Source of the DNA: an uncultured Chloroflexia bacterium
GTDB taxonomy: Bacteria; Chloroflexota; Limnocylindria; Limnocylindrales; CSP1-4
Assembly: GCA_963838285.1 (NCBI GenBank)
Contig: CAWIQP010000007.1
Coordinates: 194,193-258,192, forward strand
Length of the DNA stretch: 64,000 bases
Direction: 5' to 3'
Part shown: in pieces, positions 2,032 to 46,443 of the stretch
Layout: each line of letters starts with the position of its first letter
Position numbering within the stretch: the first letter of the stretch is position 1
The notes under the pieces: generated by a model
Told to the model about the DNA's origin: nothing
The model's input: the letters and a program-made list of their open reading frames with translations, nothing else
The model's database searches: none
Position numbers and translations under genes: made by a program

Positions 2032-3090
2032 ATGTTCGGCTTGCACACCCTGCTCGGTCTGTTCTCCCGTGACATCGGGATCGATCTGGGCACGGCCAAC
2101 ACACTAGTCTGGGTTCGCGACCGCGGCATCGTCATCAGCGAGCCGAGTGTCGTCGCCCTCGAGGCGAAGACCAGGAAGGTTCTGGCTGTCGGCGCTGAGG
2201 CAAAGCGCATGGTCGGTCGGACTCCGGCCAGCATCATCGCGGTCCGACCGCTGCGCGACGGAGTCATCAGCGACTTCGACGTGACGCAGCAGATGATCGC
2301 CTACTTCGTCCGCAAGGTTCACGACCGGATCGGCATGGTGCCCCGTCCTCGGATGCTCCTCGGCATTCCCTCGGGCGTGACAGAAGTCGAGAAGCGCGCC
2401 GTCCGAGACGCGGCCATGAACGCCGGCGCTCGCTGGGCCGGACTGATCGAGGAGCCCATGGCGGCCGCGATCGGCGCTGGGCTGCCCATCAACGAGCCCA
2501 CCGGCAGCATGATCATCGACATCGGCGGCGGCACGACCGAGGTCGCGGTCATCAGCCTCGGCGGCATCGTCGTCTCGCGGAGCATCCGCATCGGCGGCGA
2601 CGAGATGGACGCCGACATCGTCGCGTACGCCCGCCGCGAGTACAACCTGTTCCTCGGCGAGCGCACGGCCGAAGACATCAAGATCGCCATCGGATCCGCC
2701 GCCCCGGGCGAGTGGGACGCCCAGCGCGTCACCCTTCGCGGCCGCGACCTGTTGACAGGCCTGCCGCGCAGCGTCGAGGTCGGGGGCGAGCAGATCCGCG
2801 AGGCGATCGATCCATCGTTGGCGCTCATCGTTGACACGATCAAGGACACGATCGAGGAGACGCCCCCGGAGCTGGTGGCCGACATCATGGACCAGGGCAT
2901 AGTCCTGGCCGGCGGCGGCGCCCTGCTGGCGGGTTTCGATCGCCGCATCGCCGAAGCCACTCAGATGCCGGTCCACGTAGCCAACGACCCGCTGACCTGC
3001 GTCGCGCGCGGCACCGGCGTGGTCCTCGAGGAGCTGGACCTGATGGAAGAAGTGCTGGTGGCGGACACGTACGCCCGCCCGGCGCGCTGA
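2032..3090 (+). CDS. mreB: rod-shape-determining actin homologue MreB
   Basis: MFGL...DIGIDLGTANTLVW...DIGGGTTEVAVISLGGIV matches the actin/MreB phosphate-1 and phosphate-2 motifs. ATG at 2032, preceded by a purine-rich RBS. Confidence 0.9.
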   Translation: MFGLHTLLGLFSRDIGIDLGTANTLVWVRDRGIVISEPSVVALEAKTRKVLAVGAEAKRMVGRTPASIIAVRPLRDGVISDFDVTQQMIAYFVRKVHDRIGMVPRPRMLLGIPSGVTEVEKRAVRDAAMNAGARWAGLIEEPMAAAIGAGLPINEPTGSMIIDIGGGTTEVAVISLGGIVVSRSIRIGGDEMDADIVAYARREYNLFLGERTAEDIKIAIGSAAPGEWDAQRVTLRGRDLLTGLPRSVEVGGEQIREAIDPSLALIVDTIKDTIEETPPELVADIMDQGIVLAGGGALLAGFDRRIAEATQMPVHVANDPLTCVARGTGVVLEELDLMEEVLVADTYARPAR

Positions 3091-3115: not shown

Positions 3116-4330
3116 ATGAACGCGATCACGGCGACTCGGCGGACGATCCGCAGGGAGTGGACGGCCTTCGGTGCCCTGCTGATCGTCAGCGTCGGCTTGA
3201 TGGGCATGTCCGGCACGCAGACGGCCCACGACATTCAGTCGGCCGCGAACTGGGCCGTGATGCCCGTCGAAACGTTCCTCAACAGCGCGGCGGACACGGT
3301 CGGTTCGTACTGGTCCGCTCTGACCCAGATCGACCGGCTGCGAACCGAGAACGAACAGCTGAAGCTCGAGAACCAGACTCTCCAGGAAGAGTTGGAGCGC
3401 GCTCCGGCCATTGCGAAGCTGAACGACGACTGGACGAAGATCACTTCCATTGCCTCGGGCGTGCAGTACCAGACGACGCCGGTTCGAGTAATCGTCCGGG
3501 ACGTCTCGGGAGTCAATCAGCGAACCCTGATCGTCAACAAGGGCAGCAACGACGGCCTCGTCGTGGACGAGGTGGTGATCGACGCCGGGGGAGCGCTTGT
3601 CGGCCGGATTCAATCCGTCGACGCCACCGTCTCGACCATCCTTCTCATCAGCGATCCGGCATCGGTCGTGGTCGGACGGGCGTACCTCGTCGGCACCGCC
3701 TCCGCGTCCGCGTCTCCGACGGCCGCCCCGTCCGCCGCCCCCGGCTCGGCAACCGGAACGGCCACGGGCACGATCAGCGGCACGATCAGCGGCCAGCTCC
3801 AGATGTCGAACATCGACGTCACCCCGGAGCAGTGCAAGACGCTCAAGGGCAAGTACGTGGTCACAGCCGGGGAGTCCCTTCCGGGCACGAACGACACGTC
3901 GCCCTTACCCGCCGGCTCTTCTGATCGGCACGATCACCGACGTCACGTGCGATCCCAACGCGGTCGTCCAGAGCGCGGTGGTCAGCCCCGCGGCCGAACT
4001 GAACGACGCCACGTTCCTGGCCGTGATCACCGACTACCAGGGCGGCTTCGGGCCGCCCATGCCGAGCGGCTGCCCTGGCATATCCGCGAGTCCGGGCAGT
4101 TCGGCGAGCCCGCGCGGCTCGGCCAGTCCGGGGACCTCCGCCGCCCCGGGCAGCTCCTGCGCCCCCGTCGGCTCCGCGTCGTCGTCGGTCGCGCCGCACC
4201 CAAACCGTCCGAGCACTGACGGCTCCGACGCGATCCCTCGCCGCCGGGCATCCGAGTCGCGCCCGGCGCGCGCGGCCCGGCCGGCGCACGGAGGCCGGCC
4301 GGCGCTGAGCGCCAAATCGAACCTGCTAAC
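3116..4330 (+). CDS. mreC: rod-shape protein MreC, interrupted by a +1 frameshift near 3906; 3' end uncertain
   Basis: N-terminal TM, coiled coil (LRTENEQLKLENQTLQEELERA) and MreC beta-domain in frame 2 up to about 3905. The conserved C-terminus (YPPALLIGTITDV...AVVSPAAELNDATFLAVITDY) continues in frame 3. The shift maps to a C homopolymer (tcgccc). A Ser/Pro/Ala-rich tail follows. Confidence 0.7.
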
Positions 4331-4359: not shown

Positions 4360-5118
4360 TTGAAGGGTCTCGTTCTGGCGGGAGGCACGGCCACTCGCCT
4401 CTTCCCGCTCACCATCGTCACCAACAAACACCTTCTGCCGATCTACGACCGGCCGATGATCTACTACCCCATCGCCACGCTGGCGGGCATGGGGATTCGA
4501 GAGGTCATGGTCATCGTCGGCGGCAAGAGCGTCGGGGACGTGGTGGAACTCCTGGCCGACGGTGAGCACTTCGGCCTGCACCTGACGTACCGCTACCAGC
4601 GCGGAGCCTTGGGCATCGCCCACGCCGTCGGCCTGGCCCGCGACTTCGTCGGCGACGAGGCGTTCTGCTGCGTCCTCGGCGACAACGTCCTGCTGGGGCC
4701 GCCGCTGGCGGACGCGGCGCGCGAATTCGAGACCGGACCGTGGGGCGCGGGAACGCTGCTCTACGAGGTCGCCGATCCGGAGCGGTTCGGCGTCGCCGAG
4801 CTCGACGCGAGCGGGAAAGTCGTCGGCTTCGAGGAGAAGCCCGCGCAGCCGAAGTCCAACTTGATCCCGATCGGCGTGTACTTCCTGCGCCCGGATGCCT
4901 TCGGCGTCGTCGACCAGCTCGTCCCGTCCGGCCGCGGCGAGCTGGAAATAACCGACCTGCTGAACCACTACCTGCCCGGGCGCCTCTTCGCTCCCCGGTT
5001 CGAAGGCATCTGGACCGATGCCGGCACCGTCACTTCCCTGATTCGAGCGGCCGAACTGGCCGAGCAGGAATCGCGGGCCGGTCGCCTGGCCGCTCCACCC
5101 GCCAGGCCCGGCACGTGA
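4360..5118 (+). CDS. rmlA: glucose-1-phosphate thymidylyltransferase
   Basis: LKGLVLAGGTATRLFPLT...PIYDRPMIYYP is typical RmlA/RfbA. TTG start at 4360. Confidence 0.9.
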   Translation: MKGLVLAGGTATRLFPLTIVTNKHLLPIYDRPMIYYPIATLAGMGIREVMVIVGGKSVGDVVELLADGEHFGLHLTYRYQRGALGIAHAVGLARDFVGDEAFCCVLGDNVLLGPPLADAAREFETGPWGAGTLLYEVADPERFGVAELDASGKVVGFEEKPAQPKSNLIPIGVYFLRPDAFGVVDQLVPSGRGELEITDLLNHYLPGRLFAPRFEGIWTDAGTVTSLIRAAELAEQESRAGRLAAPPARPGT

Positions 5119-6206
5119 GCGAGTCCGGACCGCCGCGATTCCGCCGCCTGCTGGTGACCGGCGGAGCCGGCTTCATAGGGTCCTGCTTCGTCAGGGACAC
5201 GCTCGCCCGCCGCGACGGCACCAGGATCACCGTCCTCGACAAGCTGACCTACGCGGGCAACCGGATCAACCTGGCGCCCGCCGAGGCGGACCCCGAGCAG
5301 GCCGCGCGCCTCCGCTTCGTAGTCGGCGACATCGCCGACCCCGCGGCCGTGGCGCCGCTCCTCGCCGATGTCGACGCCGTCGTCAACTTCGCGGCCGAAT
5401 CCCACGTCGATCGTTCCATCCTCGATCCGGAGGCCTTTCTCCGCACCGACGTCATGGGCGTCCACATCCTCCTCGAGGCCTGCCGGGTCGAGCAGGAGCG
5501 GGCCGCGAAGGGACTCCGCGCCGCGGCGCCCAGGTTCGTCCAGGTCTCCACGGACGAGGTCTACGGCTCGGTCGAAACCGGCGAAAGCCGCGAGGACGAT
5601 CGGCTCGAGCCGCGCTCGCCCTACTCCGCGGCCAAGGCCGCCGGCGAGCTGCTGGCGCGCTCCTACTTCGTCACCTACGGCCTCGACGTGGTGATCACCC
5701 GCGGCTCCAACACGTACGGCCCCTACCACCATCCGGAGAAGCTGATCCCGCTCTTCATCACCAACGCCATGGACGACCAGAAGCTGCCTCTCTATGGCGA
5801 CGGCCTGCAACGCCGGGACTGGCTGTACGTGGCGGACCACGCCGGCGCGATCGGTCATGTTCTGGAACACGGGGCCGCCGGCGAGGTCTACAACGTGGCC
5901 GGCAACAACGAGCGCACCAACCGCGATGTCGTCACCGAGTTACTGACCCGGCTCGGCAAGCCGTGGTCGCTGGTGCGTCTGGTCGAAGACCGGCCCGGAC
6001 ACGACCGCCGCTACGCCATGGACAGTTCCAGGCTCGCCGCGCTGGGCTGGACGAACAGGATGCGCTTCGAGGACGGTCTGGCCGCGACCGTGGACTGGTA
6101 CCGGCAGAACCAGGACTGGTGGCGCCCCATCAAGTCCGGCGAGTGGGAGGCCTACTACCGTCGCCAGTACGAGGCCCGCCTGGCCGGCTCTCGAGAGGCC
6201 ACGTGA
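5115..6206 (+). CDS. rmlB: dTDP-glucose 4,6-dehydratase
   Basis: VTGGAGFIGS Rossmann motif, YSAAKAAGELL catalytic YxxxK, SDR-extended fold. GTG start at 5115 overlaps the rmlA stop. The N-terminal 125 aa of table ORF 4740..6206 is an alternate frame of rmlA. Confidence 0.9.
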   Translation: MSESGPPRFRRLLVTGGAGFIGSCFVRDTLARRDGTRITVLDKLTYAGNRINLAPAEADPEQAARLRFVVGDIADPAAVAPLLADVDAVVNFAAESHVDRSILDPEAFLRTDVMGVHILLEACRVEQERAAKGLRAAAPRFVQVSTDEVYGSVETGESREDDRLEPRSPYSAAKAAGELLARSYFVTYGLDVVITRGSNTYGPYHHPEKLIPLFITNAMDDQKLPLYGDGLQRRDWLYVADHAGAIGHVLEHGAAGEVYNVAGNNERTNRDVVTELLTRLGKPWSLVRLVEDRPGHDRRYAMDSSRLAALGWTNRMRFEDGLAATVDWYRQNQDWWRPIKSGEWEAYYRRQYEARLAGSREAT

Positions 6207-6222: not shown

Positions 6223-7224
6223 ATGCGCGTCGCCCTCACGGGAGCCGGTGGACGGCTGGGCAACGCCCTGATCGCCGCGCTGACGGCAGCCCCGTTCGTC
6301 GGCGAGGTGCTCGCCTGGGACATACCCGAGCACGACCTGGACGACCCGCTGTCGGCCGAGCGGCTGGTTTCCGCGCACCGGCCCGATATCGTCATCCACG
6401 CCGCCGCATGGACCGACGTGGACGGCTGCGCGCGGGATCCGGTCCTGGCCCTGCGCCGCAACGGAACCGCGGTCGGCGAGATGGCCGAGGCCTGCGTTCG
6501 GGCGGGGGCCGGCCTCCTGATGGTGTCGACCAACGAGGTCTTCGACGGTTCGCGCACGGACGGACGGCCCTACCGGCCGGCCGACGCACCCAATCCACCG
6601 AACCCCTACGGCGCGGCGAAGCTCGCCGGCGAGCAAGCGGCTCGGGCCGCGTACGGCGCGACCGGCGACGACTTCGCCGGCGCCGCGACGGTTTCCGCGC
6701 AGGCCGGAGCCGGCGCGGTCGAGGCCGAATTCGGCGCCGCGGCCGGGGCCGGGCGGATAGGCCTGGCTATCGTCCGGACGGCCTGGCTCTTCGGCCTCCC
6801 GGGCGCCGATTTCCCGCTGAAGATCATGGCAGCAGCGGAGGCCGCGCGCGCTTCCGGCTCGACGCTGAAGCTCGTGTCGGACGAGGTGGGCTGCCCGACC
6901 TACGCCGCCGACCTCGCGGGGGCGATCGTCGGTCTCGTGCGGGAGTGGGACCGGCCCGAGGGCCGAGGCTTCGCCGGCATCCACCACGTCGTCAACGCCG
7001 GTCGAGCGTCCCGGGCGGAGTGGGCTCGCGAAGTCCTGCGCCTCGCCGGCATCGACGTGCCGACCGAGGACGTGCCGATGACCACGTGGCCGCGACCGTC
7101 GAAGCCGCCCGCCTGGGGAGTCCTGGACCCGACGCCACTCCCCAAGGGTTTGCTGCGGCCGTGGCAGGATGCGACCGCGGAGTACTTGAGGCTGGCAATT
7201 CGAAGACCGGAGGCCCAGGGATGA
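6223..7224 (+). CDS. rmlD: dTDP-4-dehydrorhamnose reductase, with an Ala/Gly-rich internal insertion
   Basis: MRVALTGAGGRLG...STNEVFDG...PYGAAKLAGE matches the RmlD pattern. A roughly 35-aa A/G-rich insert (GATGDDFAGAATVSAQAGAGAVEAEFGAAAGAG) precedes the conserved IVRTAWLFG block. Confidence 0.8.
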   Translation: MRVALTGAGGRLGNALIAALTAAPFVGEVLAWDIPEHDLDDPLSAERLVSAHRPDIVIHAAAWTDVDGCARDPVLALRRNGTAVGEMAEACVRAGAGLLMVSTNEVFDGSRTDGRPYRPADAPNPPNPYGAAKLAGEQAARAAYGATGDDFAGAATVSAQAGAGAVEAEFGAAAGAGRIGLAIVRTAWLFGLPGADFPLKIMAAAEAARASGSTLKLVSDEVGCPTYAADLAGAIVGLVREWDRPEGRGFAGIHHVVNAGRASRAEWAREVLRLAGIDVPTEDVPMTTWPRPSKPPAWGVLDPTPLPKGLLRPWQDATAEYLRLAIRRPEAQG

Positions 7225-7805
7225 GTCATGAGGTGGCCGGTTCACGGCTGCGCGGCGTGCGCTACGGGCGCCTCAACGTCCTGGCCGACAGCCGCGGCTC
7301 CTTCGTCGAGATCTGGCGGGCTTCGGCCCTGGGCGAGCTGACCGCGGAAGAGACCGGATTGCCCGGGGCGCGCTTCGTCCAGGCCAACCTCTCGACCTCC
7401 GCGCCGGGCGTGCTGCGCGGGCTGCACTACCACCGCCGCCAGCTCGACTACTGGACCGTCGTGAGCGGCCGGGCCCTGGTTGCCCTCGTCGACGTGCGCC
7501 CCGTGCTGGCCGACCCTGAGGCCCACGCCCTGGTGGAGACGCGCGAACTGGGTCAGGGCGAGAACGTAACGATACCCACGGGCGTAGCCCACGGGTTCCT
7601 CGCGCTCGCGCCGCTGCAGCTTCTGTATCTGGTCACGAACGAGTACGACGGCAGCGACGAGCTGGGATTCGCCTGGGACGACCCGGCCGTCGGCGTGCCG
7701 TGGCCCACGCTCGCGGGCACGCCCGACGGGCGGCCGATCCTGTCTGATCGGGATCGCTCGAACCCGACGCTGGCCGAACTGGTGCGGAGTCTGCGCGTCG
7801 GCTGA
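7221..7805 (+). CDS. rmlC: dTDP-4-dehydrorhamnose 3,5-epimerase
   Basis: RGSFVEIWR...GVLRGLHYH...YWTVVSGRALVALVDVR cupin motifs of RmlC. ATG at 7221 overlaps the rmlD stop. The long table ORF 6408..7805 is an alternate frame of rmlD upstream of 7221. Confidence 0.85.
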   Translation: MSHEVAGSRLRGVRYGRLNVLADSRGSFVEIWRASALGELTAEETGLPGARFVQANLSTSAPGVLRGLHYHRRQLDYWTVVSGRALVALVDVRPVLADPEAHALVETRELGQGENVTIPTGVAHGFLALAPLQLLYLVTNEYDGSDELGFAWDDPAVGVPWPTLAGTPDGRPILSDRDRSNPTLAELVRSLRVG

Positions 7806-7976: not shown

Positions 7977-8767
7977 ATGAGCGACGAGCCGGGCAGCAAG
8001 TCACAACCAGGGTCGGCAAGCGCGTCCGGCAGGCGCGGCCGGGCCGCGGCGGCCAGGCCGGCCGCCGGGGCTGAGCCCGGCGCCACAAAGCCGGCGGCCG
8101 GCAAACCACGGCAGGAGACGACCGGACACGCCGCACCGGCGGCCAGAAAGACGACCGCCCCCAGGGCCCGCCCGCCCGTGGAGCCGGTCGACGTCAAGAC
8201 GGCGGCCGCGGCGGTTCCGGCAGCCCAGGAGGCCGCGGCGGGGGGGTGGTTCCGGCAACGCTGGCCGGCGTGGCCAGAGCCCGCGTCGAGGCGACCACGG
8301 TATCAATACACCAGGGCGGCGCCGGTGAGGTTGAGGCCGAGTCGGTCAGCGTCACGCAGGGCGGCATCGGCGCCGCCTCGGCGGAGGACATCACGGTTTC
8401 CATGGGCGGCATCGGCCGCGCCCAGGCCGACGACATCGCCGTTCGACTCGGAGGAGTCGGCATCGCTCGGGGCGAACGCGTCTCGGTCGAGCTCGGCATG
8501 ATCGGCATGGCCGTCGGTGGCGACGTGTCCCTGACCCAGGGATATGCCCGGACGGTTCTCGCTCGCGACGTTCGGATCCGCCAGGGCGGCGCGCAGACTG
8601 TCCTCGCCGGCAACGTTTCCTTCGAGGGTCGGAGCGGCGCATTCCTGGTACTTGCCCGGAGAGTCGAAGGCAACGTGCGCACCGTGCTCGACTGGCGCGG
8701 AGCGCTCGCCGCCGGCGCGGCTATGGGCATCGTCATCGGGCTGCTGGCCCGACGCCGGCACGGCTGA
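7977..8767 (+). CDS. beta-helical repeat protein (bactofilin-like), probably one gene split by a frameshift at a G7 homopolymer near 8240
   Basis: ORF 7977..8501 has a basic Ala/Pro/Lys-rich disordered N-terminus. ORF 8246..8767 in another frame has about seven 15–17-aa repeats (V.V.QGG.G.A.A.D...) and a C-terminal hydrophobic helix (AAGAAMGIVIGLLARRRHG). The two frames meet at a 'gcggggggg' run. Confidence 0.5.
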
Positions 8768-8893
8768 GTCTCTCCACGCCCGCCGAAGGACGCCCGACCG
8801 CGTGCGCGGCGAGCCATCCGGTATACTCTGGAGCCGGCTGAGCGGCGTCCCGAGGATCCCTCCGCCAACTCCGATCCGCCACAGGAGTGCCTC

Positions 8894-9556
8894 GTGATCG
8901 ACCCCACGGCGAGGGTTCACGCGTCCGCAGAGCTCGAAGCCGACGTCACGGTCGGCGCCCGAACCAGCATCTGGAATCGGGCCGTGCTCCGGACGGGAGC
9001 CAGTCTGGGATCGGAGTGCATCATCGGCCGAGACGCCTTCATCGACGAGGGTGTCCGGCTCGGCGATCGGGTCAAGGTCCAGAACGGCGCCCTCGTCTAC
9101 CACGGAGTTACGGTCGGCAACGGCGTCTTCATCGGCCCGGGCGCGATCCTGACCAACGACCGCTACCCGCGCGCGGTTACCGCGACAGGCGATCTGGCGC
9201 GCGGTGACGACTGGACCGTCAGCCCGATCGAGCTCTGCGACGGCTGCTCGATCGGCGCCGGAGCCGTCGTCGTAGCCGGAACGAGGGTCGGCCGTTTCGC
9301 GACCGTCGGGGCGGGGGCGATCGTCACCCGCGACGTGCCGGACTACGCCCTGGTGGCAGGCAATCCAGCCCGCCGCCTGGGCTGGGTGTGCGCCTGCGGA
9401 ACTCGACTGACCGGCCCGACCGGCGCCAACGCCGTCCCCAATCCCTCCCCCGACGATCCGCTCGCCTGCAAGCGATGCGGCCGCGCATTCGCCTTCAACC
9501 CCGCAGCCGGCTCGCTCGTGGAGCGGCCGGCGACGAGCACAGGAGTCTCTGCATGA
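8894..9556 (+). CDS. hexapeptide-repeat (LbH) sugar N-acetyltransferase, WbpD/PglD-like, with a C-terminal Cys4 zinc-ribbon extension
   Basis: Left-handed beta-helix hexapeptide repeats (VGARTSIW..., IGRDAFI..., VGNGVFIGPGAIL, IGAGAVVVAG, VGAGAIV). C-terminus has CACG...(x17)...CKRCG. GTG start at 8894 with a CAGGAG RBS. Confidence 0.8.
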   Translation: MIDPTARVHASAELEADVTVGARTSIWNRAVLRTGASLGSECIIGRDAFIDEGVRLGDRVKVQNGALVYHGVTVGNGVFIGPGAILTNDRYPRAVTATGDLARGDDWTVSPIELCDGCSIGAGAVVVAGTRVGRFATVGAGAIVTRDVPDYALVAGNPARRLGWVCACGTRLTGPTGANAVPNPSPDDPLACKRCGRAFAFNPAAGSLVERPATSTGVSA

Positions 9557-10659
9557 TCCCGCCCGCCCGCCCCGATCTAGGTCCCGAGGAGGTCGCCGCC
9601 GTCACGGAGGTGCTGGGCAGCGGCATGATCGCCCAGGGTCGCAAGGTCGCCGAGCTGGAGCAGCGCTGGGCCGCCTTCTGCGGCGTCAAGCACGCGATCG
9701 CCGTGTCGAACGGCACGGTGGCTCTGATGTCGATCTTCGCGGGCCTCGGCCTGGGCCCCGGCGACGAGGTCATCACCGTCTCCCACACCTTCAACGCCAC
9801 GGTTAGTTCCATTCTGTTCACGGGGGCCTCCCCGGTCTTCGTGGACATCGAGCCGGACACGTACCTGATGGACGCCGGCCGGATCGAAGCCGCCATCACG
9901 CCACGGACGAGGGCCATATGCCCCGTCAGCCTGTTCGGCATCGTCGCAGACATGGACGCCATCCAGGCCATCGCCGATCGCCACGGCCTGACGGTCGTCG
10001 AAGACGCCTGCCAGGCCCACGGCGCGCTCTATCGCGGCCGGCGAGCGGGCAGCTTCGGTACCGCCGCCTTCAGCTTGTACGCGACGAAGAACATGACCAC
10101 GGCCGAGGGCGGCTTCGTCACCACGAACGACGACCGCCTCGCCGATTGGATCCGGCTGTACATCAACCAGGGCATGAAGGTCCGGTATCACCACGAGATC
10201 CTCGGCTACAACTTCCGCATGACGGACCTCGCCGCGGCCATCGGTCTCGTCCAGCTCGACAAGCTCGAGCGGAACACGGCCCGACGCCAGGCGATCGCCA
10301 AGCGCTACGACGAAGCATTCGCCGACCTGCCGATCCAGCTCCCCACCTGGCCCGACGGCCGCACGCACGTGTACCACCAGTACACGATCGGCGTGGGACC
10401 GGCCCGCGACGCGATCGTGGCCGACATGAAGGACGCCGGCATCCTCTGCGGCATCTACTACCCGATCCCGTGCCACCGCCAGGCCTACGTCATGGAGCTC
10501 GGCATCGAGGCGGACCTGCCCAATACCGACGCGGCCGCGGCCGGCAGCATGTCGCTGCCGATGTACCCCGGCCTGACGGAGGCCGAGCAGGATCAAGTCG
10601 CAGCGGCCCTGCGGGCGTCGGTCCTGCGCCACGCGGTCGCCGCCGGCAACCGCTCGTGA
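9553..10659 (+). CDS. DegT/DnrJ/EryC1/StrS-family sugar aminotransferase (WbpE-like)
   Basis: PLP-dependent aminotransferase motifs (DEVITVSHTFNAT, VEDACQAHGA, SLYATKNMTTAEGG with the PLP lysine). ATG at 9553 follows the acetyltransferase stop. Confidence 0.85.
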   Translation: MIPPARPDLGPEEVAAVTEVLGSGMIAQGRKVAELEQRWAAFCGVKHAIAVSNGTVALMSIFAGLGLGPGDEVITVSHTFNATVSSILFTGASPVFVDIEPDTYLMDAGRIEAAITPRTRAICPVSLFGIVADMDAIQAIADRHGLTVVEDACQAHGALYRGRRAGSFGTAAFSLYATKNMTTAEGGFVTTNDDRLADWIRLYINQGMKVRYHHEILGYNFRMTDLAAAIGLVQLDKLERNTARRQAIAKRYDEAFADLPIQLPTWPDGRTHVYHQYTIGVGPARDAIVADMKDAGILCGIYYPIPCHRQAYVMELGIEADLPNTDAAAAGSMSLPMYPGLTEAEQDQVAAALRASVLRHAVAAGNRS

Positions 10660-11681
10660 CCGCGCCCGTGCGGCTCGGCCTGGCCGGGCTGGGCTCGATG
10701 GGCCGGAACCACCTCCGCGTCATCTCCAACCACCCCGAAACGACGCTCGTAGCGATCGCGGACCCCGATCCGGCTGCTCTCGAGGCCGCGGTCTCGCAGA
10801 CCGGGGCGAAGGGCTTCGCCGATCCCCTGGCCATGATCGCGGGGGCCGAGATCGACGGCGTGGTGCTGGCCGCGCCGACCACGGCCCATGTCGCCCTCGC
10901 TCTCGCCGCCATCGAACGCGGCCTGGGAGTGCTCGTCGAGAAGCCGCTGGCGGCCACCGTCGACGACGGGCTAGTCATCGTGGCCGCCGCCCGCAAGCGG
11001 AACGTCCGCGTTCAGGTGGGGCACGTGGAGCGGTACAACCCCGCCGTGATGGAGATGGGGCGCCTGCTGCGAGCCGGCTGGCTGTCCACGATCTACGCCA
11101 TCACCAGCCGCCGAGCCGGTCCCTTCCCGGCTCGCATCCGCGACGTCGGCGTGACCGTGGACCTGGGCACTCACGACGTGGACATGCTGTGCTGGATCGC
11201 CGGCGAGCGGCCCGTCCGCGTCTACGCCGAGACGGCCCAGAGGCTCCATGCCAGCCACGAGGACCTGACCTTCGGACTGATGCACTTCCCGTCCGGCGCC
11301 ACGGGGTTCCTCGACGTCGACTGGCTCACGCCCGCGAAGCGACGCAGCCTCGTTGCCGTCGGCGAGGAAGGCATGTTCGAGCTCGACTACCTCACTCAGA
11401 AGCTGACCTTCACCCGCTCCAACGTCGAGCGGCCGCAGATGATCGGCGGCTACGCCACGACCTTCACCGGCGACGTGGCGGAAATTCCGGTCCAGAACGT
11501 GGAGCCGCTTCGAGCCGAGCTCGACGAATTCGTACGCGTTCTGCGAACCGGAGACCGGCCGTACGTGGACGGCGAGGACGGCCTGTGGGCCGTCGCCATC
11601 GCCAACGCGCTGCTGACCGCCGCCGCCGAGGGCCGTCCCGTCGACCTGTCCGACCTTCCATCGAGGCTAGCAGCCGAATGA
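10656..11681 (+). CDS. Gfo/Idh/MocA-family NAD-dependent sugar oxidoreductase (WbpB-like)
   Basis: N-terminal Rossmann fold (RLGLAGLGSMGRNHL) and the C-terminal domain of the Gfo/Idh/MocA family. GTG at 10656 overlaps the previous stop. Confidence 0.8.
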   Translation: MTAPVRLGLAGLGSMGRNHLRVISNHPETTLVAIADPDPAALEAAVSQTGAKGFADPLAMIAGAEIDGVVLAAPTTAHVALALAAIERGLGVLVEKPLAATVDDGLVIVAAARKRNVRVQVGHVERYNPAVMEMGRLLRAGWLSTIYAITSRRAGPFPARIRDVGVTVDLGTHDVDMLCWIAGERPVRVYAETAQRLHASHEDLTFGLMHFPSGATGFLDVDWLTPAKRRSLVAVGEEGMFELDYLTQKLTFTRSNVERPQMIGGYATTFTGDVAEIPVQNVEPLRAELDEFVRVLRTGDRPYVDGEDGLWAVAIANALLTAAAEGRPVDLSDLPSRLAAE

Positions 11682-13120
11682 CCATCGTCTCGCGCCCTTC
11701 GCGCGTCGTCAGCTTCCTGGGCGGCTCGATCAATCCGCCCGCCAATCCGTGCACCCACAAGACCCCGAAGTCGGTGCGTCCCTGGACCGGCGACCGCGGC
11801 ACCGTCGGCCGGGCCGTAGTGGTCGGCGCGGGCAAGATGGGACTGCCGCTGGCCGTCCAGTTCGCCCGCCACGGTTGGGACGTGACCGCGGTCGACGTAA
11901 ATCCGGACGTCGTGGCGGCCATCAACGAGGGTCGGTCCCACGTCGCCGAGGAGCCCGGACTGGCCGAGGGCGTAGCCGAGGTCCACACCGCGGGTCGCCT
12001 CCACGCCACGGCCGACGCCGCCACCGCGGTTCGCGAAGCGGACGTCGCCGTCCTCATCGTGCCCGTAATGCTCGACGACGCCCAGCAGCCGGACTACCGC
12101 TACATGGACTCCGCCGTGGACTCTATCTCCGGCGGGATTCACTCGGGCGTCACGGTCATCTTCGAAACCACTCTCCCGGTCGGGGACACGCGCGGGCGGT
12201 TCGCGCCCAGGCTCGAGGCGGCCAGCGGGCTCAAGGCCGACACGGACTTCTTCGTCGCCTTCTCGCCGGAGCGCCTCTACTCCGGAGCCGTGTTCGCCAA
12301 CCTTTCGACCTACCCCAAGCTCGTCGGCGGCATCGGACCGGAGTCCGGACGGCGCGCGGCCGAGTTCTACGACTCCGTCCTTGACGCCGAGATCGTGAAG
12401 ATGAGCTGCGCCGAGGCGGCCGAGTTCAGCAAGATCGCCGACACGACCTACCGCGACGTGAACATCGCCCTCGCCAACGACTTCGCCCTCTACGCCGACC
12501 GCGTCGGAGTCGACATCCAGGAGGTCATCGACGGCGCGAACAGCCAGCCGTACTCGCACATCCACCAGCCCGGCATCGGCGTCGGCGGCCACTGCATCCC
12601 GGTCTATCCTCACCTGCTTCTGAGCCGCGCCCCCGACCTCGAGGTCGTGGCGGTCTCGCGCCGCACCAACGACGCCCAGGTAGGCAACGCCATCAAGTCG
12701 CTCGAGACGCACCTGGGCGGTCTCGACGAAGTGCCGATCCTCGTTCTCGGCCTGACCTATCGCGAGAACGTCAAAGAACTCGCCTATTCGCGGGCCCTGC
12801 CGCTGATCGAGCGGCTCTCGTTCCACGGCGCCGACGTTTCCGCGTACGACCCGCTCCTCTCTGCGGCGGAAGTGGAGGAGCGCTGTTGCGCCACGCCGTA
12901 CGCCTGGGGCCGGCCGGCGCCGTTCAGGGCCATCGTGACCCAGACCGCGGACAAGCTCTGGAACGAGATCGACTTCTCGCTCTTCCCCGACCTCGAGCTG
13001 ATCCTCGACGGTCGGAATAGCCTGCGCGGGATCGACCTGCCGGCGGAAGTGCGTTACGTGGGCATCGGCGTTCAGGCCGCCACGAGGCGCCGAGCCGCCG
13101 ACGCCCCCGCCTCGAGCTGA
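11678..13120 (+). CDS. UDP-sugar 6-dehydrogenase (UDP-N-acetyl-D-glucosamine/mannosamine dehydrogenase; WbpA/WecC-like)
   Basis: VVVGAGKMGLPLAV NAD-binding fold and central GGHCIPV catalytic Cys motif. ATG at 11678 overlaps the upstream stop (ATGA). Upstream part of table ORF 11189..13120 is an alternate frame. Confidence 0.85.
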   Translation: MTIVSRPSRVVSFLGGSINPPANPCTHKTPKSVRPWTGDRGTVGRAVVVGAGKMGLPLAVQFARHGWDVTAVDVNPDVVAAINEGRSHVAEEPGLAEGVAEVHTAGRLHATADAATAVREADVAVLIVPVMLDDAQQPDYRYMDSAVDSISGGIHSGVTVIFETTLPVGDTRGRFAPRLEAASGLKADTDFFVAFSPERLYSGAVFANLSTYPKLVGGIGPESGRRAAEFYDSVLDAEIVKMSCAEAAEFSKIADTTYRDVNIALANDFALYADRVGVDIQEVIDGANSQPYSHIHQPGIGVGGHCIPVYPHLLLSRAPDLEVVAVSRRTNDAQVGNAIKSLETHLGGLDEVPILVLGLTYRENVKELAYSRALPLIERLSFHGADVSAYDPLLSAAEVEERCCATPYAWGRPAPFRAIVTQTADKLWNEIDFSLFPDLELILDGRNSLRGIDLPAEVRYVGIGVQAATRRRAADAPASS

Positions 13121-13130
13121 CCGGACCGGC

Positions 13131-14282
13131 ATGCGGATCGTCAGCGTCGTCGGCACGCGACCGCAGCTGATCAAGGCCGCCGCGCTCCAGCCCGTCCTTC
13201 GCCGGAGCCACGTCGAGACGTTCGTGGATACCGGCCAGCACTACGACGACGCCATGGCCGGGGACTTCTTCGGGGAGCTGGGGCTTGCCCGCCCGGACCA
13301 CACCCTTGGCATCGGCGGCGGCGGCCACGGAGACCAGACCGGCCGTATGCTCGTCGCCCTGGAGCCGTTGTTGCGGGACGCGGCGCCCGACGCCGTCCTG
13401 GTCTACGGCGACACCAACTCCACCCTGGCGGGGGCGCTGGCGGCGGCGAAGCTGGGCATCCCCGTCGCCCACGTCGAGGCCGGCCTGCGGAGCTTCGACC
13501 GGCGCATGCCCGAAGAACTGAACCGCGTCGTGGCCGACCACCTTTCGCGCTGGCTCTTCGCGCCCACTCCGGCGGCGGTGTCGAACCTGGCCGCGGAGGG
13601 GATCTCCTCAGGGGTGCTCGATGTCGGCGATTTGATGCTCGACCTGGCCGCGCGCGTCTCCGAGGAAGTCCGGAGCGCGGCCGTCCTGGAGCCCATCGCC
13701 GGGCGGCTCGGCGTGGCGCTCGCGCCTGGTCGCTTCCTCTTCGCCACAGTCCATCGGGCCGAGAACCGCGACCCGGCCGCGCTGGCGGCCTGGGCGGCGC
13801 TGCTGGGCGCCGTCGCGGCTCCGGATCGGCCGGTGATCCTGGCGCTCCATCCCGGAACGCGATCGGCGCTGGACGGCGCGGAGATCGCCCTTCCCGGCGG
13901 CGTGATCGTCGTGGGGCCGCAAGGTTACCGGACGTCCCTGGCACTGCAATTGCACGCGGCCGCCGTTCTGACCGACTCGGGCGGCGTCCAACGCGAAGCG
14001 GCCTGGCTGGGCGTCCCGTGCCTGGTCCTCCGAACCTCGACCGAATGGGTCGAAACCGTCGGCGGCGCCGGGAGCTCGGCCGTCCTGGTCGGACTCGATC
14101 GCGAGGCCGCCCTGAGGGAGCTTTCAGCTCGCGCTCCGCTCTCCCGAACGGTCGAGCAGGCCGTCGAGCGAGCCGCGAGCCTGCGCCTCACCGGCTCCGG
14201 CGCGGCCGAACGCATCTCCTCGGCCCTGACCTCCGGCGCCGCCACTGCCGCCCCATCCGCCGCCGCGGGAGCCCGGCGATGA
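13131..14282 (+). CDS. non-hydrolysing UDP-N-acetylglucosamine-type 2-epimerase (WecB/WbpI-like)
   Basis: MRIVSVVGTRPQLIKAAAL...DTGQHYD...VLVYGDTNSTLAGALAAAKLGIPVAHVEAGLRS matches the WecB signature. Confidence 0.85.
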   Translation: MRIVSVVGTRPQLIKAAALQPVLRRSHVETFVDTGQHYDDAMAGDFFGELGLARPDHTLGIGGGGHGDQTGRMLVALEPLLRDAAPDAVLVYGDTNSTLAGALAAAKLGIPVAHVEAGLRSFDRRMPEELNRVVADHLSRWLFAPTPAAVSNLAAEGISSGVLDVGDLMLDLAARVSEEVRSAAVLEPIAGRLGVALAPGRFLFATVHRAENRDPAALAAWAALLGAVAAPDRPVILALHPGTRSALDGAEIALPGGVIVVGPQGYRTSLALQLHAAAVLTDSGGVQREAAWLGVPCLVLRTSTEWVETVGGAGSSAVLVGLDREAALRELSARAPLSRTVEQAVERAASLRLTGSGAAERISSALTSGAATAAPSAAAGARR

Positions 14283-15517
14283 CCGCGACCCGGCCGCGCC
14301 GGCCGATCTGCATGATCGTCCACGCCTACTACGAGGAGGATCCTCGCGTTCGCCGCGAGGCGGAGTCTCTGGTCGCCGCCGGCTGGGAGGTGGACGTCTA
14401 CGGCCTGCGCCGGCCGGGCGAGGCGGAAACGGCCGTGGTCGCGGGCGTGAACCTGCGCCGTCTGCCGGTGGGCCGACACCAGGGCGCCGGCCTGCCGGTC
14501 TATCTCGTCGAGTACGGGGCGTTCCTCGTTCGGGCGCTCTGGGCCGCCACGCTCGCCCACCGCCGGCGGCGTTACGCGCTGGTCGAGGTTCACTCGCTGC
14601 CGGACTACCTGGTCTTCGCGGCACTGCCGATGAAGCTCGCCGGCGTTCCGGTGCTGCTGGACCTCCACGAGGCCATGCCGGAGTTCTTCCGAAGCAGGTT
14701 CCCGAAGGCGGCCAACCCGATCAGCTACCGGTTACTGCTGTTGCAGGAGAGGCTGTCCATCGCCCTGGCGGACGAGGTGATGACGGTCAACGAGCCGCTT
14801 GCCGAGCGCTTGCGCGGCCTGGGCGTCGAGCCGGACCGGCTTACCGTCGTCCTGAACAGCCCGGACCTGGGCCTCTTCGATCCGAGCGCCCGGCCCCGCC
14901 GCGACTTCATGGCCGACGGCACGCTCCGCATCGTCTACACCGGCGCCCTCACGCCGACGTACGAGCTGGACGTGGTCCTGCGGGCGGTATCGGAGATCGG
15001 GCGGAGACGGCCGGAACTGCCCGTGAGCGCGACTTTCTACGGCCGCGGCGACGCCCTGCCCGCGCTCGAGGCCCTGGCCTCCGAGCTCGGCATCGCCGAC
15101 CGCGTCACCTTCCCGGGCCGCATTCCCATCGAGGACGTGCCGGGGGCGGTGGCCGAGGGCGACATCGGCGTGGCTCCAACGCGTCTCGACCCGTTCACGG
15201 GCATGAGCCTGTCGACGAAGGTTCTGGAGTACGCGGCCATGGACAAGCCCGTCGTGGCTTCACGCCTGCCCACGGTCGAGCGGTACTTCAGCCCCGACAC
15301 GCTCTCGGTCTACGAGCCGGGGGACCCGGAGTCGCTCGCCGCGACCATCCTCGGTCTGGTCGACGATGCCCCGGGCCGCCTGGACCGCGTCGATCGAACG
15401 CGCAGGCGCATGGACGAGCTGAGCTGGACCCGCCAGGCCGAGGCCTACAGGCGGGTTGTCGATCGCCTTACGGCACGGCCTCGGACCGCGGCCGCCGGGC
15501 GGATTCCGCCACCCTGA
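14279..15517 (+). CDS. GT4-family glycosyltransferase
   Basis: GT-B fold with the C-terminal EX7E-type region (GVAPTRLDPFTGMSLSTKVLEYAAMDKPVVAS). ATG at 14279 overlaps the epimerase stop. Confidence 0.8.
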   Translation: MTATRPRRPICMIVHAYYEEDPRVRREAESLVAAGWEVDVYGLRRPGEAETAVVAGVNLRRLPVGRHQGAGLPVYLVEYGAFLVRALWAATLAHRRRRYALVEVHSLPDYLVFAALPMKLAGVPVLLDLHEAMPEFFRSRFPKAANPISYRLLLLQERLSIALADEVMTVNEPLAERLRGLGVEPDRLTVVLNSPDLGLFDPSARPRRDFMADGTLRIVYTGALTPTYELDVVLRAVSEIGRRRPELPVSATFYGRGDALPALEALASELGIADRVTFPGRIPIEDVPGAVAEGDIGVAPTRLDPFTGMSLSTKVLEYAAMDKPVVASRLPTVERYFSPDTLSVYEPGDPESLAATILGLVDDAPGRLDRVDRTRRRMDELSWTRQAEAYRRVVDRLTARPRTAAAGRIPPP

Positions 15518-23495: not shown

Positions 23496-25214
23496 TCAAG
23501 GCGCTCCGGCTGCCGCCGCGCCCTCGACCGTCCCGCGCCGCGTCATCCGGTAGAGCGCGAAGGCGCTCCCCACCAGCACCGCCATCATCACGTAGTCCGA
23601 GGCCATGTTCCGCCACGGCCGGTACATGTCGCCGGCAAAGGCAAATCCCACGATCTGCCAGGACACCATCGCCGCCAGCAGGGCGCCGGCCATCAGCCGC
23701 GCCAGGGGATCGGGCGGTGCCCGGTACACCCGCCACAGAGCGAGGAACGCCGCCGCGTAGAGGATCAGCTCCGCCGCCAGCGCAGGCAGACCCAACTCCG
23801 CGGCGGCTTCCGGGTACATCGAGTGTGCCCAGTCGAGATCGTCCTTCGCCTCCGGCGGTTTGTAGCGGCCCGGCACGTACTGCGTCTTGAACTGGTCCAG
23901 GCCGATGCCCAGCAGCGGGTGATCTACGGCCATCTCGATACCGGCGCGCGTGGCGTACCAGCGTTCCAGCAGCGAGCCCTGGCCGGACAGGGTCGACGGA
24001 TTCCAGGAGTCGTAGCGGCTCTCGCCCATCAGCGAGACCATCGCGCCCCGGTAGGCCTGCTCCAGCGGCGGGACGACCTGCAGGAAGAACGCCGGCCAGG
24101 GAATCACGACCGTCGAGAGCACGCACGTTGCCAGGACGATCGCGCCGCGCCGGCGCCAGCTGTGCACGACCAGAAGCACCAGTACGAGACAGCCTCCGAA
24201 GGTCGCCAGATAAGCGCTCTTCGAGAACGTGAAGAAGAGGCTCGCCAGCGACACGAGGATCGCCGCGACCAGCAGGGCAAGGACGCGGCGCCGCAGGTTC
24301 AGGTACCGATGCGCCGCCAGCGCTGCCAGCAGGATCGGCATGGCCATCGCCAGCATCTCCCCGAAGAGGCCGACGTTGAAGTAGGTGATGCGCGAGAAGT
24401 ACAGCCGGTCGTCCTGCAGCACGGCGAGCGTCTTCATCGCCGGAATGCTCTGCAGCATGTCGAGGAGGCCGCCCATTGCGACCGAGACCGCCAGAACGAC
24501 CGCCAGCAGCGCCAGATCGCGCCACCTCGGACGGAGGGCCAGGAGCAGCAAGGCCATCGCCACCGGCTCGAGGATGCCGTGCAGCAGGATGGTGGCGCTC
24601 GTCGAGCGATCGGGTGAAACGGCGGTCGAGAGCGTTGCCAGGATCAGCAACGCGACGATCGCCACGCCCGCCACGCGGTCCGGCGCGATCCGGGCCGGCA
24701 GACTACGCGACCGAGCCGGCAGGCCCCGGGATGTGGCCGAGGACGCCCGCGGTTGAGGCGGCTCGGACGACAGAGAAGCCGGCGGCCGAGGTGCGCCCGG
24801 AGCGGATGCCGCCGAGGCGGCCGCTTCCCGGCCGGGCTCGCGCAGCGCCACGCCCAGCGCCAGCACGCCGACGAACACCGTCTGGGAGATGACCTGGATC
24901 GGGCCGGCGTTCACCGACATCTGGGCGACGTCGAGGACGGGCGTCAGGAAGAGGACCGCGAGGAAACCCCGCCACGGGCGCACGACGGCATACCCGGCCA
25001 GGGCCGCGGCCAGGAGCGGCACGAGCCCGGCCACCACTCGGGCCACGGGGCCGGCCTGGATGTCGTACGGAGCGTGCTCGTCGAAGGCGTAGACGAGGAG
25101 CGTCGCCACCGAGACGGAGACGGCCGCGACGGTCCTCGCCAGAGCGCGACCGCGCAGGGCGCGGAGGTCGAAAGCGCGTCGGGCAGCTCGCACGATACGT
25201 TCGAGTTCAGGCAA
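23496..25214 (-). CDS. O-antigen ligase/polymerase-family (Wzy_C) polytopic membrane protein
   Basis: About 12 predicted TM helices and a periplasmic loop with ...ERWYATRAGIEMAVDHPLLGIGLDQF..., the O-antigen-ligase signature. An internal Ser/Pro/Ala-rich cytoplasmic loop is present. Confidence 0.75.
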   Translation of the reverse strand: MPELERIVRAARRAFDLRALRGRALARTVAAVSVSVATLLVYAFDEHAPYDIQAGPVARVVAGLVPLLAAALAGYAVVRPWRGFLAVLFLTPVLDVAQMSVNAGPIQVISQTVFVGVLALGVALREPGREAAASAASAPGAPRPPASLSSEPPQPRASSATSRGLPARSRSLPARIAPDRVAGVAIVALLILATLSTAVSPDRSTSATILLHGILEPVAMALLLLALRPRWRDLALLAVVLAVSVAMGGLLDMLQSIPAMKTLAVLQDDRLYFSRITYFNVGLFGEMLAMAMPILLAALAAHRYLNLRRRVLALLVAAILVSLASLFFTFSKSAYLATFGGCLVLVLLVVHSWRRRGAIVLATCVLSTVVIPWPAFFLQVVPPLEQAYRGAMVSLMGESRYDSWNPSTLSGQGSLLERWYATRAGIEMAVDHPLLGIGLDQFKTQYVPGRYKPPEAKDDLDWAHSMYPEAAAELGLPALAAELILYAAAFLALWRVYRAPPDPLARLMAGALLAAMVSWQIVGFAFAGDMYRPWRNMASDYVMMAVLVGSAFALYRMTRRGTVEGAAAAGAP

Positions 25215-27132: not shown

Positions 27133-27145
27133 GTCGAGTCAGTGG

Positions 27146-27817
27146 CTAGAACGGAGATTCGTGTTCGTGCTCCGGTTCGGGCTCGCTCGACCCGCTGTCG
27201 ACCGTCCCCGACTCGCCCGTGGCGTAGTCGTAGGAACTCATGTCGGAGGCGCCGGCGTCGTACTGACCCGGTTCGTGCTCGGCGGCGGCGCCCGGAGCGG
27301 GGGCGTCGCCCGGAGCGGGCGCTCCGCCGGCGGTCTCACGATACTCGGCGGCCATCTCGAATTCGGCCTGGGCCATGACGGCGGACTCGGCTCCGAGCTC
27401 CGCGGCGACCTGGGCCTCGGCCAGCTCTTCGCGCGCGGCTTCGGGTTCGCCGTAGGCGGCCCATTCGCTGGCGGCCTGCAGATGCTCGGACGCGACTTCT
27501 TCCATTACGGCCGCGGTCGCGAGCGAGCCCTGACCCCACTCCTCCCAGGTGGCGGCCGAGTCGGGCAGAGCCGAGGCGGCGTCCGGGTTCGGTTCCGGCG
27601 TACCGGCAGCAGCGGCGCCGGCGGCCTCGGCCGGCTGGTCTGTCGCGGAGCCGGGTGCGGCGGCCGGCTCGTCCTGAGGTTGCGCGGCCCCCGCCGGCGC
27701 GTCCTGAGGTTGCGCGGCCCCCGCCGGCGCGGCGCCGGATGGGTCGTTGGCCGCTGGCGCCGCATTCTTGTCGCCCAACGTGTCCGCGGCGAACTGTCCC
27801 CGGTCTGCGTCAGCCAT
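27146..27817 (-). CDS. acidic Ala/Glu/Pro-rich low-complexity (probably disordered) protein
   Basis: 223-aa ORF, strongly acidic with no TM segment. Contains a perfect 30-bp tandem duplication at about 27668–27727 encoding PAGAAQPQDA/PAGAAQPQDE. Same strand as, and immediately upstream of, the zinc-ribbon ORF. Confidence 0.4.
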   Translation of the reverse strand: MADADRGQFAADTLGDKNAAPAANDPSGAAPAGAAQPQDAPAGAAQPQDEPAAAPGSATDQPAEAAGAAAAGTPEPNPDAASALPDSAATWEEWGQGSLATAAVMEEVASEHLQAASEWAAYGEPEAAREELAEAQVAAELGAESAVMAQAEFEMAAEYRETAGGAPAPGDAPAPGAAAEHEPGQYDAGASDMSSYDYATGESGTVDSGSSEPEPEHEHESPF

Positions 27818-28139
27818 CTGCTCGACTCCAGGAGGGCCCGGGGGCTCAACGCCCCGAGAGAGGCCACGTCCGGAATCCTAGCGACCCGCCCCCGCCATTT
27901 CCAGATGCAGGTTGCCCAGCACGGGCCAAGCGGCGGCGGGGCCGCCGGACCGACGGCCTCGGCCGGGTCGAGCCCCGGATTCTCCAGCCGATTGGCCCCA
28001 GCACTCAGCTGGAGGATTCGCGGCGCGCCGGGGCCGGGCCAACCACAAGCCAACCGTTCACGAGCGTGATGGCAAACGCCGGTGCGCCGGCTATCGTTCG
28101 CATTGAACCAGAACCCCCAAGCCACCGGCGAGGCATACC

Positions 28140-44488: not shown

Positions 44489-46443
<1,955 letters not shown>

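Follow-up and report, generated by a model that had tools for sequence, protein, structure and literature searches.

The window analysed here, a stretch of 64,000 nucleotides (contig CAWIQP010000007.1, positions 194,193 to 258,192), carries at 8894-15517 a cassette of six genes on one strand (+), which holds every enzyme family of the route to a UDP-2,3-diacetamido-2,3-dideoxy-hexuronic acid together with a glycosyltransferase of family GT4. The part of the window that contains the cassette derives from a metagenome-assembled genome (MAG) of an uncultured Chloroflexota of Ca. Limnocylindrales from soil and peat; Limnocylindria are known solely from MAGs (PMC10608941). The first 45.6 kb have a G+C content of ~70%, and spurious open reading frames (ORFs) are consequently abundant; gene boundaries were therefore set by frame analysis of third-position GC (GC3) together with the ORF list. 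Families were assigned by Pfam and NCBIfam profile searches on the window proteins, and the locus was compared with two independent ENA assemblies, L001 and L002.

The cassette opens with an N-acetyltransferase of the left-handed β-helix (LbH) type, WlbB/WbpD-like (8894-9556; Pfam Hexapep), followed by a DegT-family aminotransferase dependent on pyridoxal phosphate (PLP), with a putative WbpE role (9553-10659; PF01041, 411 bits), a Gfo/Idh/MocA NAD-dependent oxidoreductase with a putative WbpB/WlbA role (10656-11681; Pfam GFO_IDH_MocA N- and C-terminal domains), a nucleoside diphosphate (NDP)-sugar 6-dehydrogenase for a WbpA or WecC role (11678-13120; TIGR03026, 315 bits, over the cutoff of 189.8), a non-hydrolysing 2-epimerase apparently of the UDP-GlcNAc3NAcA type (WbpI/WlbD; 13131-14282) and a GT4 enzyme, putatively a diacetamido uronic acid transferase (14279-15517; Pfam Glyco_trans_4_4 and Glyco_trans_1_4). 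Stop and start codons overlap by 4 nt (ATGA/GTGA) at four junctions, namely acetyltransferase/aminotransferase, aminotransferase/oxidoreductase (GTGA), oxidoreductase/6-dehydrogenase and epimerase/GT4 (ATGA), and 10 nt separate the 6-dehydrogenase from the epimerase, so that, of the four junctions among the five pathway genes, all on the same strand, three are 4-nt overlaps and the fourth is a gap of 10 nt. Such a layout suggests a translationally coupled operon, for which co-transcription is predicted; scans of the cassette region for promoters and terminators, Rfam families and repeats returned nothing relevant. An earlier note on this DNA had listed the six genes in this order, with four stop/start overlaps and a complete five-enzyme set plus GT4. 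The gene order is confirmed by the GC3 frames, the ORF list and the profile searches, all four overlaps were found, and every family is present. The same note had started the cassette at 7977 with the LbH enzyme, and this is corrected here: 7977-8767 is a separate hypothetical gene.

Among the cassette enzymes, the epimerase is the strongest evidence for the identity of the sugar. Its closest PDB entry is 8SXV, the UDP-GlcNAc3NAcA 2-epimerase of Thermus thermophilus (E = 4.9e-82, 280 bits, 53% identity), against 145 bits to Escherichia coli WecB; the generic wecB model TIGR00236 is also matched over its cutoff (245 vs. 210 bits). The T. thermophilus enzyme is set apart from UDP-GlcNAc epimerases by Ala18 (for Leu/Met), Tyr96 (for His/Gln) and Trp307 (for Arg); the arginine replaced by Trp307 binds the 3-OH of UDP-GlcNAc in those epimerases, and Ala18/Tyr96 have been credited with accommodating the C6 carboxylate of UDP-GlcNAc3NAcA (PMC10622841). 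In our alignment, these three residues correspond to Ala16, Tyr92 and Trp306 of the window epimerase, and to Met, His and Arg of E. coli WecB; the 3-OH-binding Arg of WecB-type epimerases is absent from the aligned position of the window enzyme, where Trp306 stands, and the catalytic residues are identical to those of the T. thermophilus enzyme. Across the window sequence and 35 orthologues, Ala, Tyr and Trp are kept in 35/36, 35/36 and 36/36 sequences, respectively; metagenomic WbpI-like enzymes have the whole Ala/Tyr/Trp set in 67 of 78 cases, and the Trp in all 78. By its sequence, the epimerase is clearly of the WbpI/WlbD type.

The acetyltransferase points in the same direction. WlbB (3MQG) is its best PDB match (E = 1.4e-34): the two are 40% identical over 169 aligned columns, and the FTN motif is retained. 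FdtD and QdtC, both 3-N-acetyltransferases, come next. The enzyme scored under the cutoff of the NeuD/PglB/VioB model TIGR03570 (89 vs. 160.8 bits), and its sequence characterizes it as WlbB-like, a predicted C3 N-acetyltransferase rather than one of the NeuD/PglD type. The terms "WbpI-like" and "WbpD-like" already used for these two proteins are borne out by the matches to 8SXV and 3MQG.

Judged by their sequences, the other three of the five pathway enzymes (the Gfo-type oxidoreductase, the 6-dehydrogenase and the aminotransferase) form deep, lineage-specific branches, far from characterized counterparts. They were placed in simple neighbour-joining (NJ) trees, with PDB fragments, E. coli WecC and WecE, and the genes of 80 WbpI-type loci recovered by a metagenome scan with the Thermus epimerase as references (no characterized WbpA among them); many of these loci have 6-dehydrogenase, Gfo, acetyltransferase and aminotransferase genes beside the epimerase. 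NCBIfam holds no equivalog models for WbpA, WbpB, WbpE or WbpD. For the Gfo-type enzyme, the best specific profile is NF040723, the archaeal UDP-GlcNAc 3-dehydrogenase, matched over its full length (2e-77, 260.7 bits) under the cutoff of 450, and followed by inositol dehydrogenase (5.5e-39); the best PDB matches are the WlbA entries 3Q2I and 3Q2K (31% identity), in which the lysine of the EKP motif and the histidine of HxxD line up with those of the window enzyme. Among the best 60 of its 106 PDB matches (E ≤ 10), none belongs to the α-ketoglutarate-dependent WbpB class (PDB codes 3OA2 and 3O9Z). Gfo enzymes encoded beside WbpI-type epimerases in unrelated metagenomic clusters also match NF040723, at 85-185 bits. 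In four metagenomic loci (L093, 2213-3871; L116, 301-1926; L129, 5255-6910; L149, 5411-6988) a single ORF of 525-552 aa spans both Gfo and LbH acetyltransferase matches, which suggests apparent fusions of a C3 dehydrogenase with an acetyltransferase; if true, these would be a Rosetta-stone link between both steps.

The 6-dehydrogenase has the GGHC catalytic-Cys motif, and scores under the cutoffs of the two WecC models (254 and 201 bits) and of TviB (132 bits). Its best PDB matches are 4R16 (3.8e-62) and Cap5O (7.9e-51), both UDP-ManNAc dehydrogenases; identity reaches 37% to 4R16 (from P. horikoshii) and 26-32% to the rest, with 31% to E. coli WecC. All that a word-indexed homologue search brought up were near relatives from Limnocylindrales, annotated as "nucleotide sugar dehydrogenase," a name that does not separate WbpA from WecC. 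The dehydrogenase phylogeny suggested in the earlier note puts the enzyme on a deep branch outside the TviB-like group, the other Wbp-cluster dehydrogenases and the WecC/Cap5O clade, and does not separate UDP-GlcNAc from UDP-ManNAc as substrates. The "WbpA-like" and "WbpB-like" assignments of that note hold at the family level and not as closer kinship, as both enzymes are deep branches 20-37% identical to the references; its profile check similarly confirms the families, the specific models (NF040723, WecC, ArnB/PseC) being matched under their cutoffs.

The aminotransferase is 44% identical to WbpE, 43.5% to perosamine synthase and 43% to 7B0D, with its PLP lysine aligned with that of WbpE; its best NCBIfam matches are ArnB and PseC, both under cutoffs. 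A robust position in a PglE/PseC-like 4-amino clade had been named in advance as incompatible with the predicted sugar; the enzyme does not group there, and falls inside a 67% clade with WbpE, 7B0D and all the context-verified aminotransferases, and outside the "second" aminotransferases of those loci, forming a lineage of its own within that clade. As all three window enzymes are separate deep branches, the NJ trees do not decide substrate or regiochemistry, and because they give no positive proof of C3 chemistry, the assignment of the aminotransferase to C3 rests on context: its gene overlaps that of the Gfo enzyme, the cassette lacks a short-chain dehydrogenase/reductase (SDR) dehydratase, the acetyltransferase is of the C3 type, and the epimerase is of the 3-acetamido-uronic-acid type.

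The cassette was followed in 314 related stretches of GTDB representative genomes, of which the best 80 (70-93% identity), all of them Chloroflexota MAGs (recorded as Ca. Limnocylindrales, Limnocylindria or simply Chloroflexota), were examined. By tblastn synteny, the order hypothetical gene-acetyltransferase-aminotransferase-Gfo-6-dehydrogenase-epimerase is the same in every one of these 80 species-level loci that reaches those genes. An orthologue of the GT4 gene adjoins the epimerase gene in the closer relatives only, its place being taken by other GT4 genes in distant ones. The rml genes found upstream in the window are adjacent in some relatives; elsewhere they lie ~7 kb off or are missing from the locus. 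The comparison indicates a core locus, shared across the order and lying among housekeeping genes, unlike a serotype-variable O-antigen cluster. In distant Limnocylindrales (L052, 144-7665 and 13742-20741; L063, 16523-19257), the cassette lies within a larger glycan locus, with three or four more GT4 genes downstream and GT2, GT4, DUF3048 and GH18-SH3 genes upstream.

On this basis, we consider it probable that the cassette encodes a Wbp-type route from UDP-GlcNAc to UDP-2,3-diacetamido-2,3-dideoxy-D-mannuronic acid (UDP-ManNAc3NAcA), followed by GT4 transfer to a putative acceptor; as far as sequences can tell, UDP-ManNAc3NAcA is well supported as the product. In the proposed order, the 6-dehydrogenase would yield UDP-GlcNAcA, C3 would then be oxidized by the Gfo-type dehydrogenase and, coupled to this oxidation, the DegT aminotransferase would give UDP-GlcNAc3NA; N3 would be acetylated by the WlbB-like LbH enzyme and C2 inverted by the WbpI-type epimerase, the GT4 enzyme receiving the resulting UDP-ManNAc3NAcA. 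The step order is a proposal, since the 6-dehydrogenase and the Gfo enzyme branch off deeply and share 20-37% identity with each of the references. Several observations weigh against the Wbp-type route as a whole. The Gfo enzyme shares no more than 20-31% identity with WlbA, GnnA and the context-verified enzymes, from which it is separated by a deep NJ branch; the 6-dehydrogenase, at 26-37% to all references, is nearest, marginally, to UDP-ManNAc dehydrogenases; the aminotransferase is as distant from WbpE as from the 4-aminotransferase perosamine synthase, joining the latter weakly (49%); and the matches to NF040723 and to the WecC models lie under curated cutoffs. Furthermore, the genes adjacent to the cassette include no priming transferase, flippase, polymerase or LCP ligase, the cassette has one GT4 gene only, and we know of no chemistry for any Limnocylindria, the class being known only from MAGs.

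The same enzymes could reach the same product in another order, which we hold to be unlikely: oxidation, amination and acetylation at C3 would take place on UDP-GlcNAc, followed by 2-epimerization and, last, by a WecC-like oxidation at C6. Such a sequence would agree with the best model of the Gfo enzyme, a 3-dehydrogenase of UDP-GlcNAc and not of UDP-GlcNAcA, with the closeness of the 6-dehydrogenase to 4R16 and Cap5O (37% identity to 4R16 vs. 26-32% to dehydrogenases of Wbp-like clusters), and with the WecC-clade dehydrogenases that lie beside WbpI-type epimerases in the metagenomic loci L126 and L152. Against it, Ala16 and Tyr92 of the epimerase are linked to the C6 carboxylate (PMC10622841), which would therefore be expected already at the epimerase step; the 6-dehydrogenase is a separate branch, not nested in the WecC clade, and the profile matches are all under cutoffs. 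The epimerase also bears on the idea, which we regard as very improbable, of two products, where Gfo, aminotransferase and acetyltransferase would make UDP-GlcNAc3NAc (GnnA/GnnB-like chemistry plus acetylation) and the epimerase and 6-dehydrogenase would act as WecB and WecC toward UDP-ManNAcA. Its score over the wecB cutoff, the leaning of the 6-dehydrogenase to WecC and Cap5O, and the 10-nt gap that parts the epimerase gene from the fully overlapping block of the other four would all fit this division; nonetheless, Trp306 replaces the Arg that binds the 3-OH, the Ala/Tyr/Trp triad differs from the Met/His/Arg of WecB, the scores are 280 bits to the UDP-GlcNAc3NAcA epimerase vs. 145 to WecB, and the 6-dehydrogenase gene overlaps (ATGA) that of Gfo, not that of the epimerase.

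We give very little credence to an aminotransferase acting at C4 (as in perosamine synthase, ArnB or PglE-like enzymes), with a 4-amino or 4-acetamido sugar as the outcome, possibly derived from the dTDP-4-keto-6-deoxyglucose of RmlB. The aminotransferase does resemble perosamine synthase (43.5%) and ArnB (260 bits) as much as WbpE, joins perosamine synthase in the NJ tree (49%) and has ArnB and PseC as best NCBIfam matches, under cutoffs; the rest of the locus speaks otherwise. The cassette has no SDR 4,6-dehydratase, and the upstream RmlB is a dTDP-glucose 4,6-dehydratase equivalog in an rml group whose adjacency to the cassette is not conserved; the Gfo gene, the best specific model of which is a C3 dehydrogenase, overlaps the aminotransferase gene; the acetyltransferase is of the WlbB/QdtC/FdtD class and not of the PglD/VioB/NeuD class; and the signature of the epimerase calls for a 3-acetamido uronic acid as substrate.

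The five-enzyme route has been established in Pseudomonas aeruginosa and Bordetella pertussis, and proposed for T. thermophilus, where only the epimerase of the five has been characterized (PMC10622841). The Wbp/Wlb systems (P. aeruginosa WbpA/B/E/D/I; B. pertussis WlbA-D) comprise the same five families and have the same predicted product as the cassette, whose acetyltransferase and aminotransferase are 40% and 44% identical to WlbB and WbpE; a GT4 gene follows in the cassette, and WbpH and WbpJ are also GT4 enzymes. On the other hand, the Wbp/Wlb hosts are proteobacteria with lipopolysaccharide (LPS), whereas the cassette host is probably a monoderm Chloroflexota; its C3 dehydrogenase is only ~27-31% identical to the sequential-mechanism WlbA class, its 6-dehydrogenase belongs neither with the TviB-like nor with the WecC-like dehydrogenases of Wbp-type clusters, and the cassette is an order-wide core rather than serotype-variable. 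The five-gene set of T. thermophilus HB27 (8SXV) shares with the window an epimerase with the same catalytic residues and the same Ala/Tyr/Trp triad, at 53% identity. The 3-dehydrogenase, 6-dehydrogenase and aminotransferase of Thermus share 49% identity with their P. aeruginosa counterparts (PMC10622841, Table 1), whereas those of Limnocylindrales are far more divergent. The WecB/WecC route to UDP-ManNAcA (enterobacterial common antigen; Staphylococcus aureus Cap5P/Cap5O) employs the same two enzyme families as the epimerase and the 6-dehydrogenase of the cassette, and the best PDB matches of the latter are UDP-ManNAc dehydrogenases; nonetheless, the window epimerase has Ala/Tyr/Trp where E. 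coli WecB has Met/His/Arg, and the 6-dehydrogenase, 31% identical to E. coli WecC, lies outside its clade. The archaea offer a further parallel in the archaellin N-glycan sugar route of Methanococcus maripaludis and in the UDP-GlcNAc 3-dehydrogenase family NF040723, the best specific profile of the cassette Gfo enzyme; at 260 bits, this enzyme lies well under the cutoff of 450, its host is bacterial, and the archaeal glycan is N-linked to protein. The archaeal route reportedly follows the P. aeruginosa scheme, going by the title of a 2015 paper by Siu and colleagues.

Closer in envelope type is Streptomyces griseus, whose teichuronic acid has the structure [4)-ManNAc3NAcA-β(1→3)-GalNAc-α(1→]n and is attributed to a Wbp-like utr cluster with, by structural modelling, a dehydrogenase, an aminotransferase/oxidase pair, an N-acetyltransferase, a 2-epimerase and glycosyltransferases (PMC13274773). 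Compared by description and not by sequence, it offers a high-G+C monoderm with a wall-bound anionic ManNAc3NAcA polymer, and may be the best functional analogy for a cassette polymer; it belongs to another phylum, and utr varies among Streptomyces species, whereas the cassette is conserved across an order. ManNAc3NAcA is also contained in a wall/matrix polysaccharide of Cutibacterium acnes (PMC6598116), and a diacetamido-uronic-acid secondary wall polymer is ascribed to Geobacillus stearothermophilus by a reference cited in PMC2571106. The polymers of S. griseus and C. acnes contradict the earlier note, according to which a polymer of this kind was undescribed in organisms of such composition; for Chloroflexota, no description of a ManNAc3NAcA-type polymer was found in the literature searched.

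As the cassette keeps a single gene arrangement across Limnocylindrales, and lies among housekeeping and cell-shape genes, we consider a core anionic polymer of the envelope (similar to teichuronic acid, or a secondary wall polymer of another type) more likely for its glycan than a variable one of the O-antigen type. A co-polymer of rhamnose and ManNAc3NAcA, as proposed before, finds no tie beyond the adjacency of the rml genes, itself not conserved among relatives, and we do not retain it. A wider picture can be drawn, which we consider unlikely and offer as speculation: an order-wide core anionic wall polymer that would stand in for teichoic or teichuronic acids, made by a lineage-specific C3 dehydrogenase, 6-dehydrogenase and aminotransferase in a step order that may differ from that of Wbp, and acting with the linked, membrane-anchored β-solenoid protein of the gene upstream, beside mreBC. 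Broadly, the cassette would be a known pathway in a new lineage, with no new kind of system and no new mechanism. Its relevance lies in the host, since Ca. Limnocylindria, which are uncultured and of undescribed envelope chemistry, abound in soils, peat and lakes, and the order-wide operon predicts an acidic ManNAc3NAcA-containing wall glycan for Limnocylindrales. This would add to the view that a "rare LPS sugar" is widespread in monoderm or atypical envelopes (Streptomyces, Cutibacterium, Geobacillus, Thermus, methanogens), and the divergent dehydrogenases and aminotransferase represent new sequence space for the enzymology of the pathway.

The gene at 7977-8767 (+), between rmlC and the cassette, encodes a conserved hypothetical protein, and lies directly upstream of the acetyltransferase gene in most of the 80 Limnocylindrales loci. 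The window copy is split by an 8-nt insertion (GGGGGTGG, ~8240-8247) relative to L001 and L002, which have one intact ORF of 260 aa (7330-8112 in L001). An assembly error is a plausible origin of the insertion, because many genes are split in the sister assembly L002 (aminotransferase, 6-dehydrogenase, epimerase and GT4), and indel errors are for the same reason likely in these assemblies; the Gfo protein sequence is found identical on ENA metagenome contigs, one of them of 248 kb. The hypothetical protein has a disordered Ala/Pro-rich N-terminus, a confidently predicted β-solenoid and, at its C-terminus, a hydrophobic helix. In the alignment-based AlphaFold model (pLDDT 85.9), which covers the last 173 residues (encoded by 8246-8767), 11 strands are followed by a helix at 150-171. 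Pfam and NCBIfam searches gave no match to the protein, and comparison of the model with PDB folds gave none at E < 0.1; a profile search of 1.84 billion proteins returned 1062 cluster representatives at E ≤ 1e-3, and the family is small and unannotated. An LbH enzyme was considered for this protein and rejected, as it has neither a Hexapep match nor a PDB fold at E < 0.1; its repeat pattern probably led to the LbH call of the earlier note. Two longer family members, P0378 and P0279, have Hexapep or DegT fragments at their ends, probably from gene calls that read through into the adjacent gene.

Upstream of the hypothetical gene lie, all on the forward strand, mreB (2032-3090; PRK13927 MreB of NCBIfam, 508.6 bits, passing the cutoff of 293; a 352-aa gene call in L001), mreC (3116-4219; Pfam MreC in L001, the NCBIfam MreC models being the best matches, under their cutoffs), a rmlA-like glucose-1-phosphate thymidylyltransferase gene (4360-5118; best match TIGR01207, 219 bits, under the cutoff of 360), rmlB for dTDP-glucose 4,6-dehydratase (5115-6206; TIGR01181, 422.7 bits, over the cutoff of 365), a rmlD-like dTDP-4-dehydrorhamnose reductase gene (6223-7224; TIGR01214, 188 bits, under the cutoff of 224) and a divergent rmlC-like 3,5-epimerase gene (7221-7805; TIGR01221, 94 bits, under the cutoff of 156; Pfam dTDP_sugar_isom in L001), the start of which overlaps the rmlD stop (ATGA). 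The assignment of this group to dTDP-L-rhamnose is likely, and less secure than the gene names imply, because the rmlA, rmlD and rmlC homologues are under their NCBIfam equivalog cutoffs and rmlB alone passes. The rml and mreBC genes had been expected here, and all six are present; the cassette does not directly follow them, as had been said, because the separate gene at 7977-8767 intervenes.

Downstream, the O-antigen-ligase-like protein announced at about 8 kb was also found, as a Wzy_C (O-antigen ligase/polymerase-like) membrane protein encoded at 23496-25214 (-; PF04932, E = 8.5e-17). The intervening genes encode a PpiC-type isomerase, MazG, RNase PH, Ham1, a TetR protein and an amylase; 8 kb off and behind housekeeping genes, Wzy_C is a candidate only for a link to the cassette. 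Adjoining its gene, the ORF at 25774-27132 (-; 452 aa) gave a weak zinc-ribbon match only and no family, and a nearby ORF at 27026-28069 (+) had no family assignment; the two overlap, and the shared stretch probably codes for one of them at most.

At ~45.6 kb, the G+C content drops from ~70% to ~40% within ~200 bases. The last high-GC gene encodes an S9 peptidase (42372-44537), and a tRNA-Pro(CGG) lies at 44543-44619, just ahead of the break. The break falls inside one apparent ORF (44486-46081, -), in which part of the adenylation domain of an NAD-dependent DNA ligase, low in G+C, is fused to a high-GC fragment of a "Recombinase" domain; since both genes are cut mid-domain, the junction has more the appearance of two unrelated sequences joined into a chimera than of an integrated island. 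An exact-sequence look-up of the S9 peptidase and of an EF-G-like GTPase from the tail (48951-51044, -) found neither on record. The tail (46000-64000; 37-52% G+C), which also encodes a fused ABC ATPase-permease (57832-60585, -), probably comes from an organism other than that of the Limnocylindrales part.

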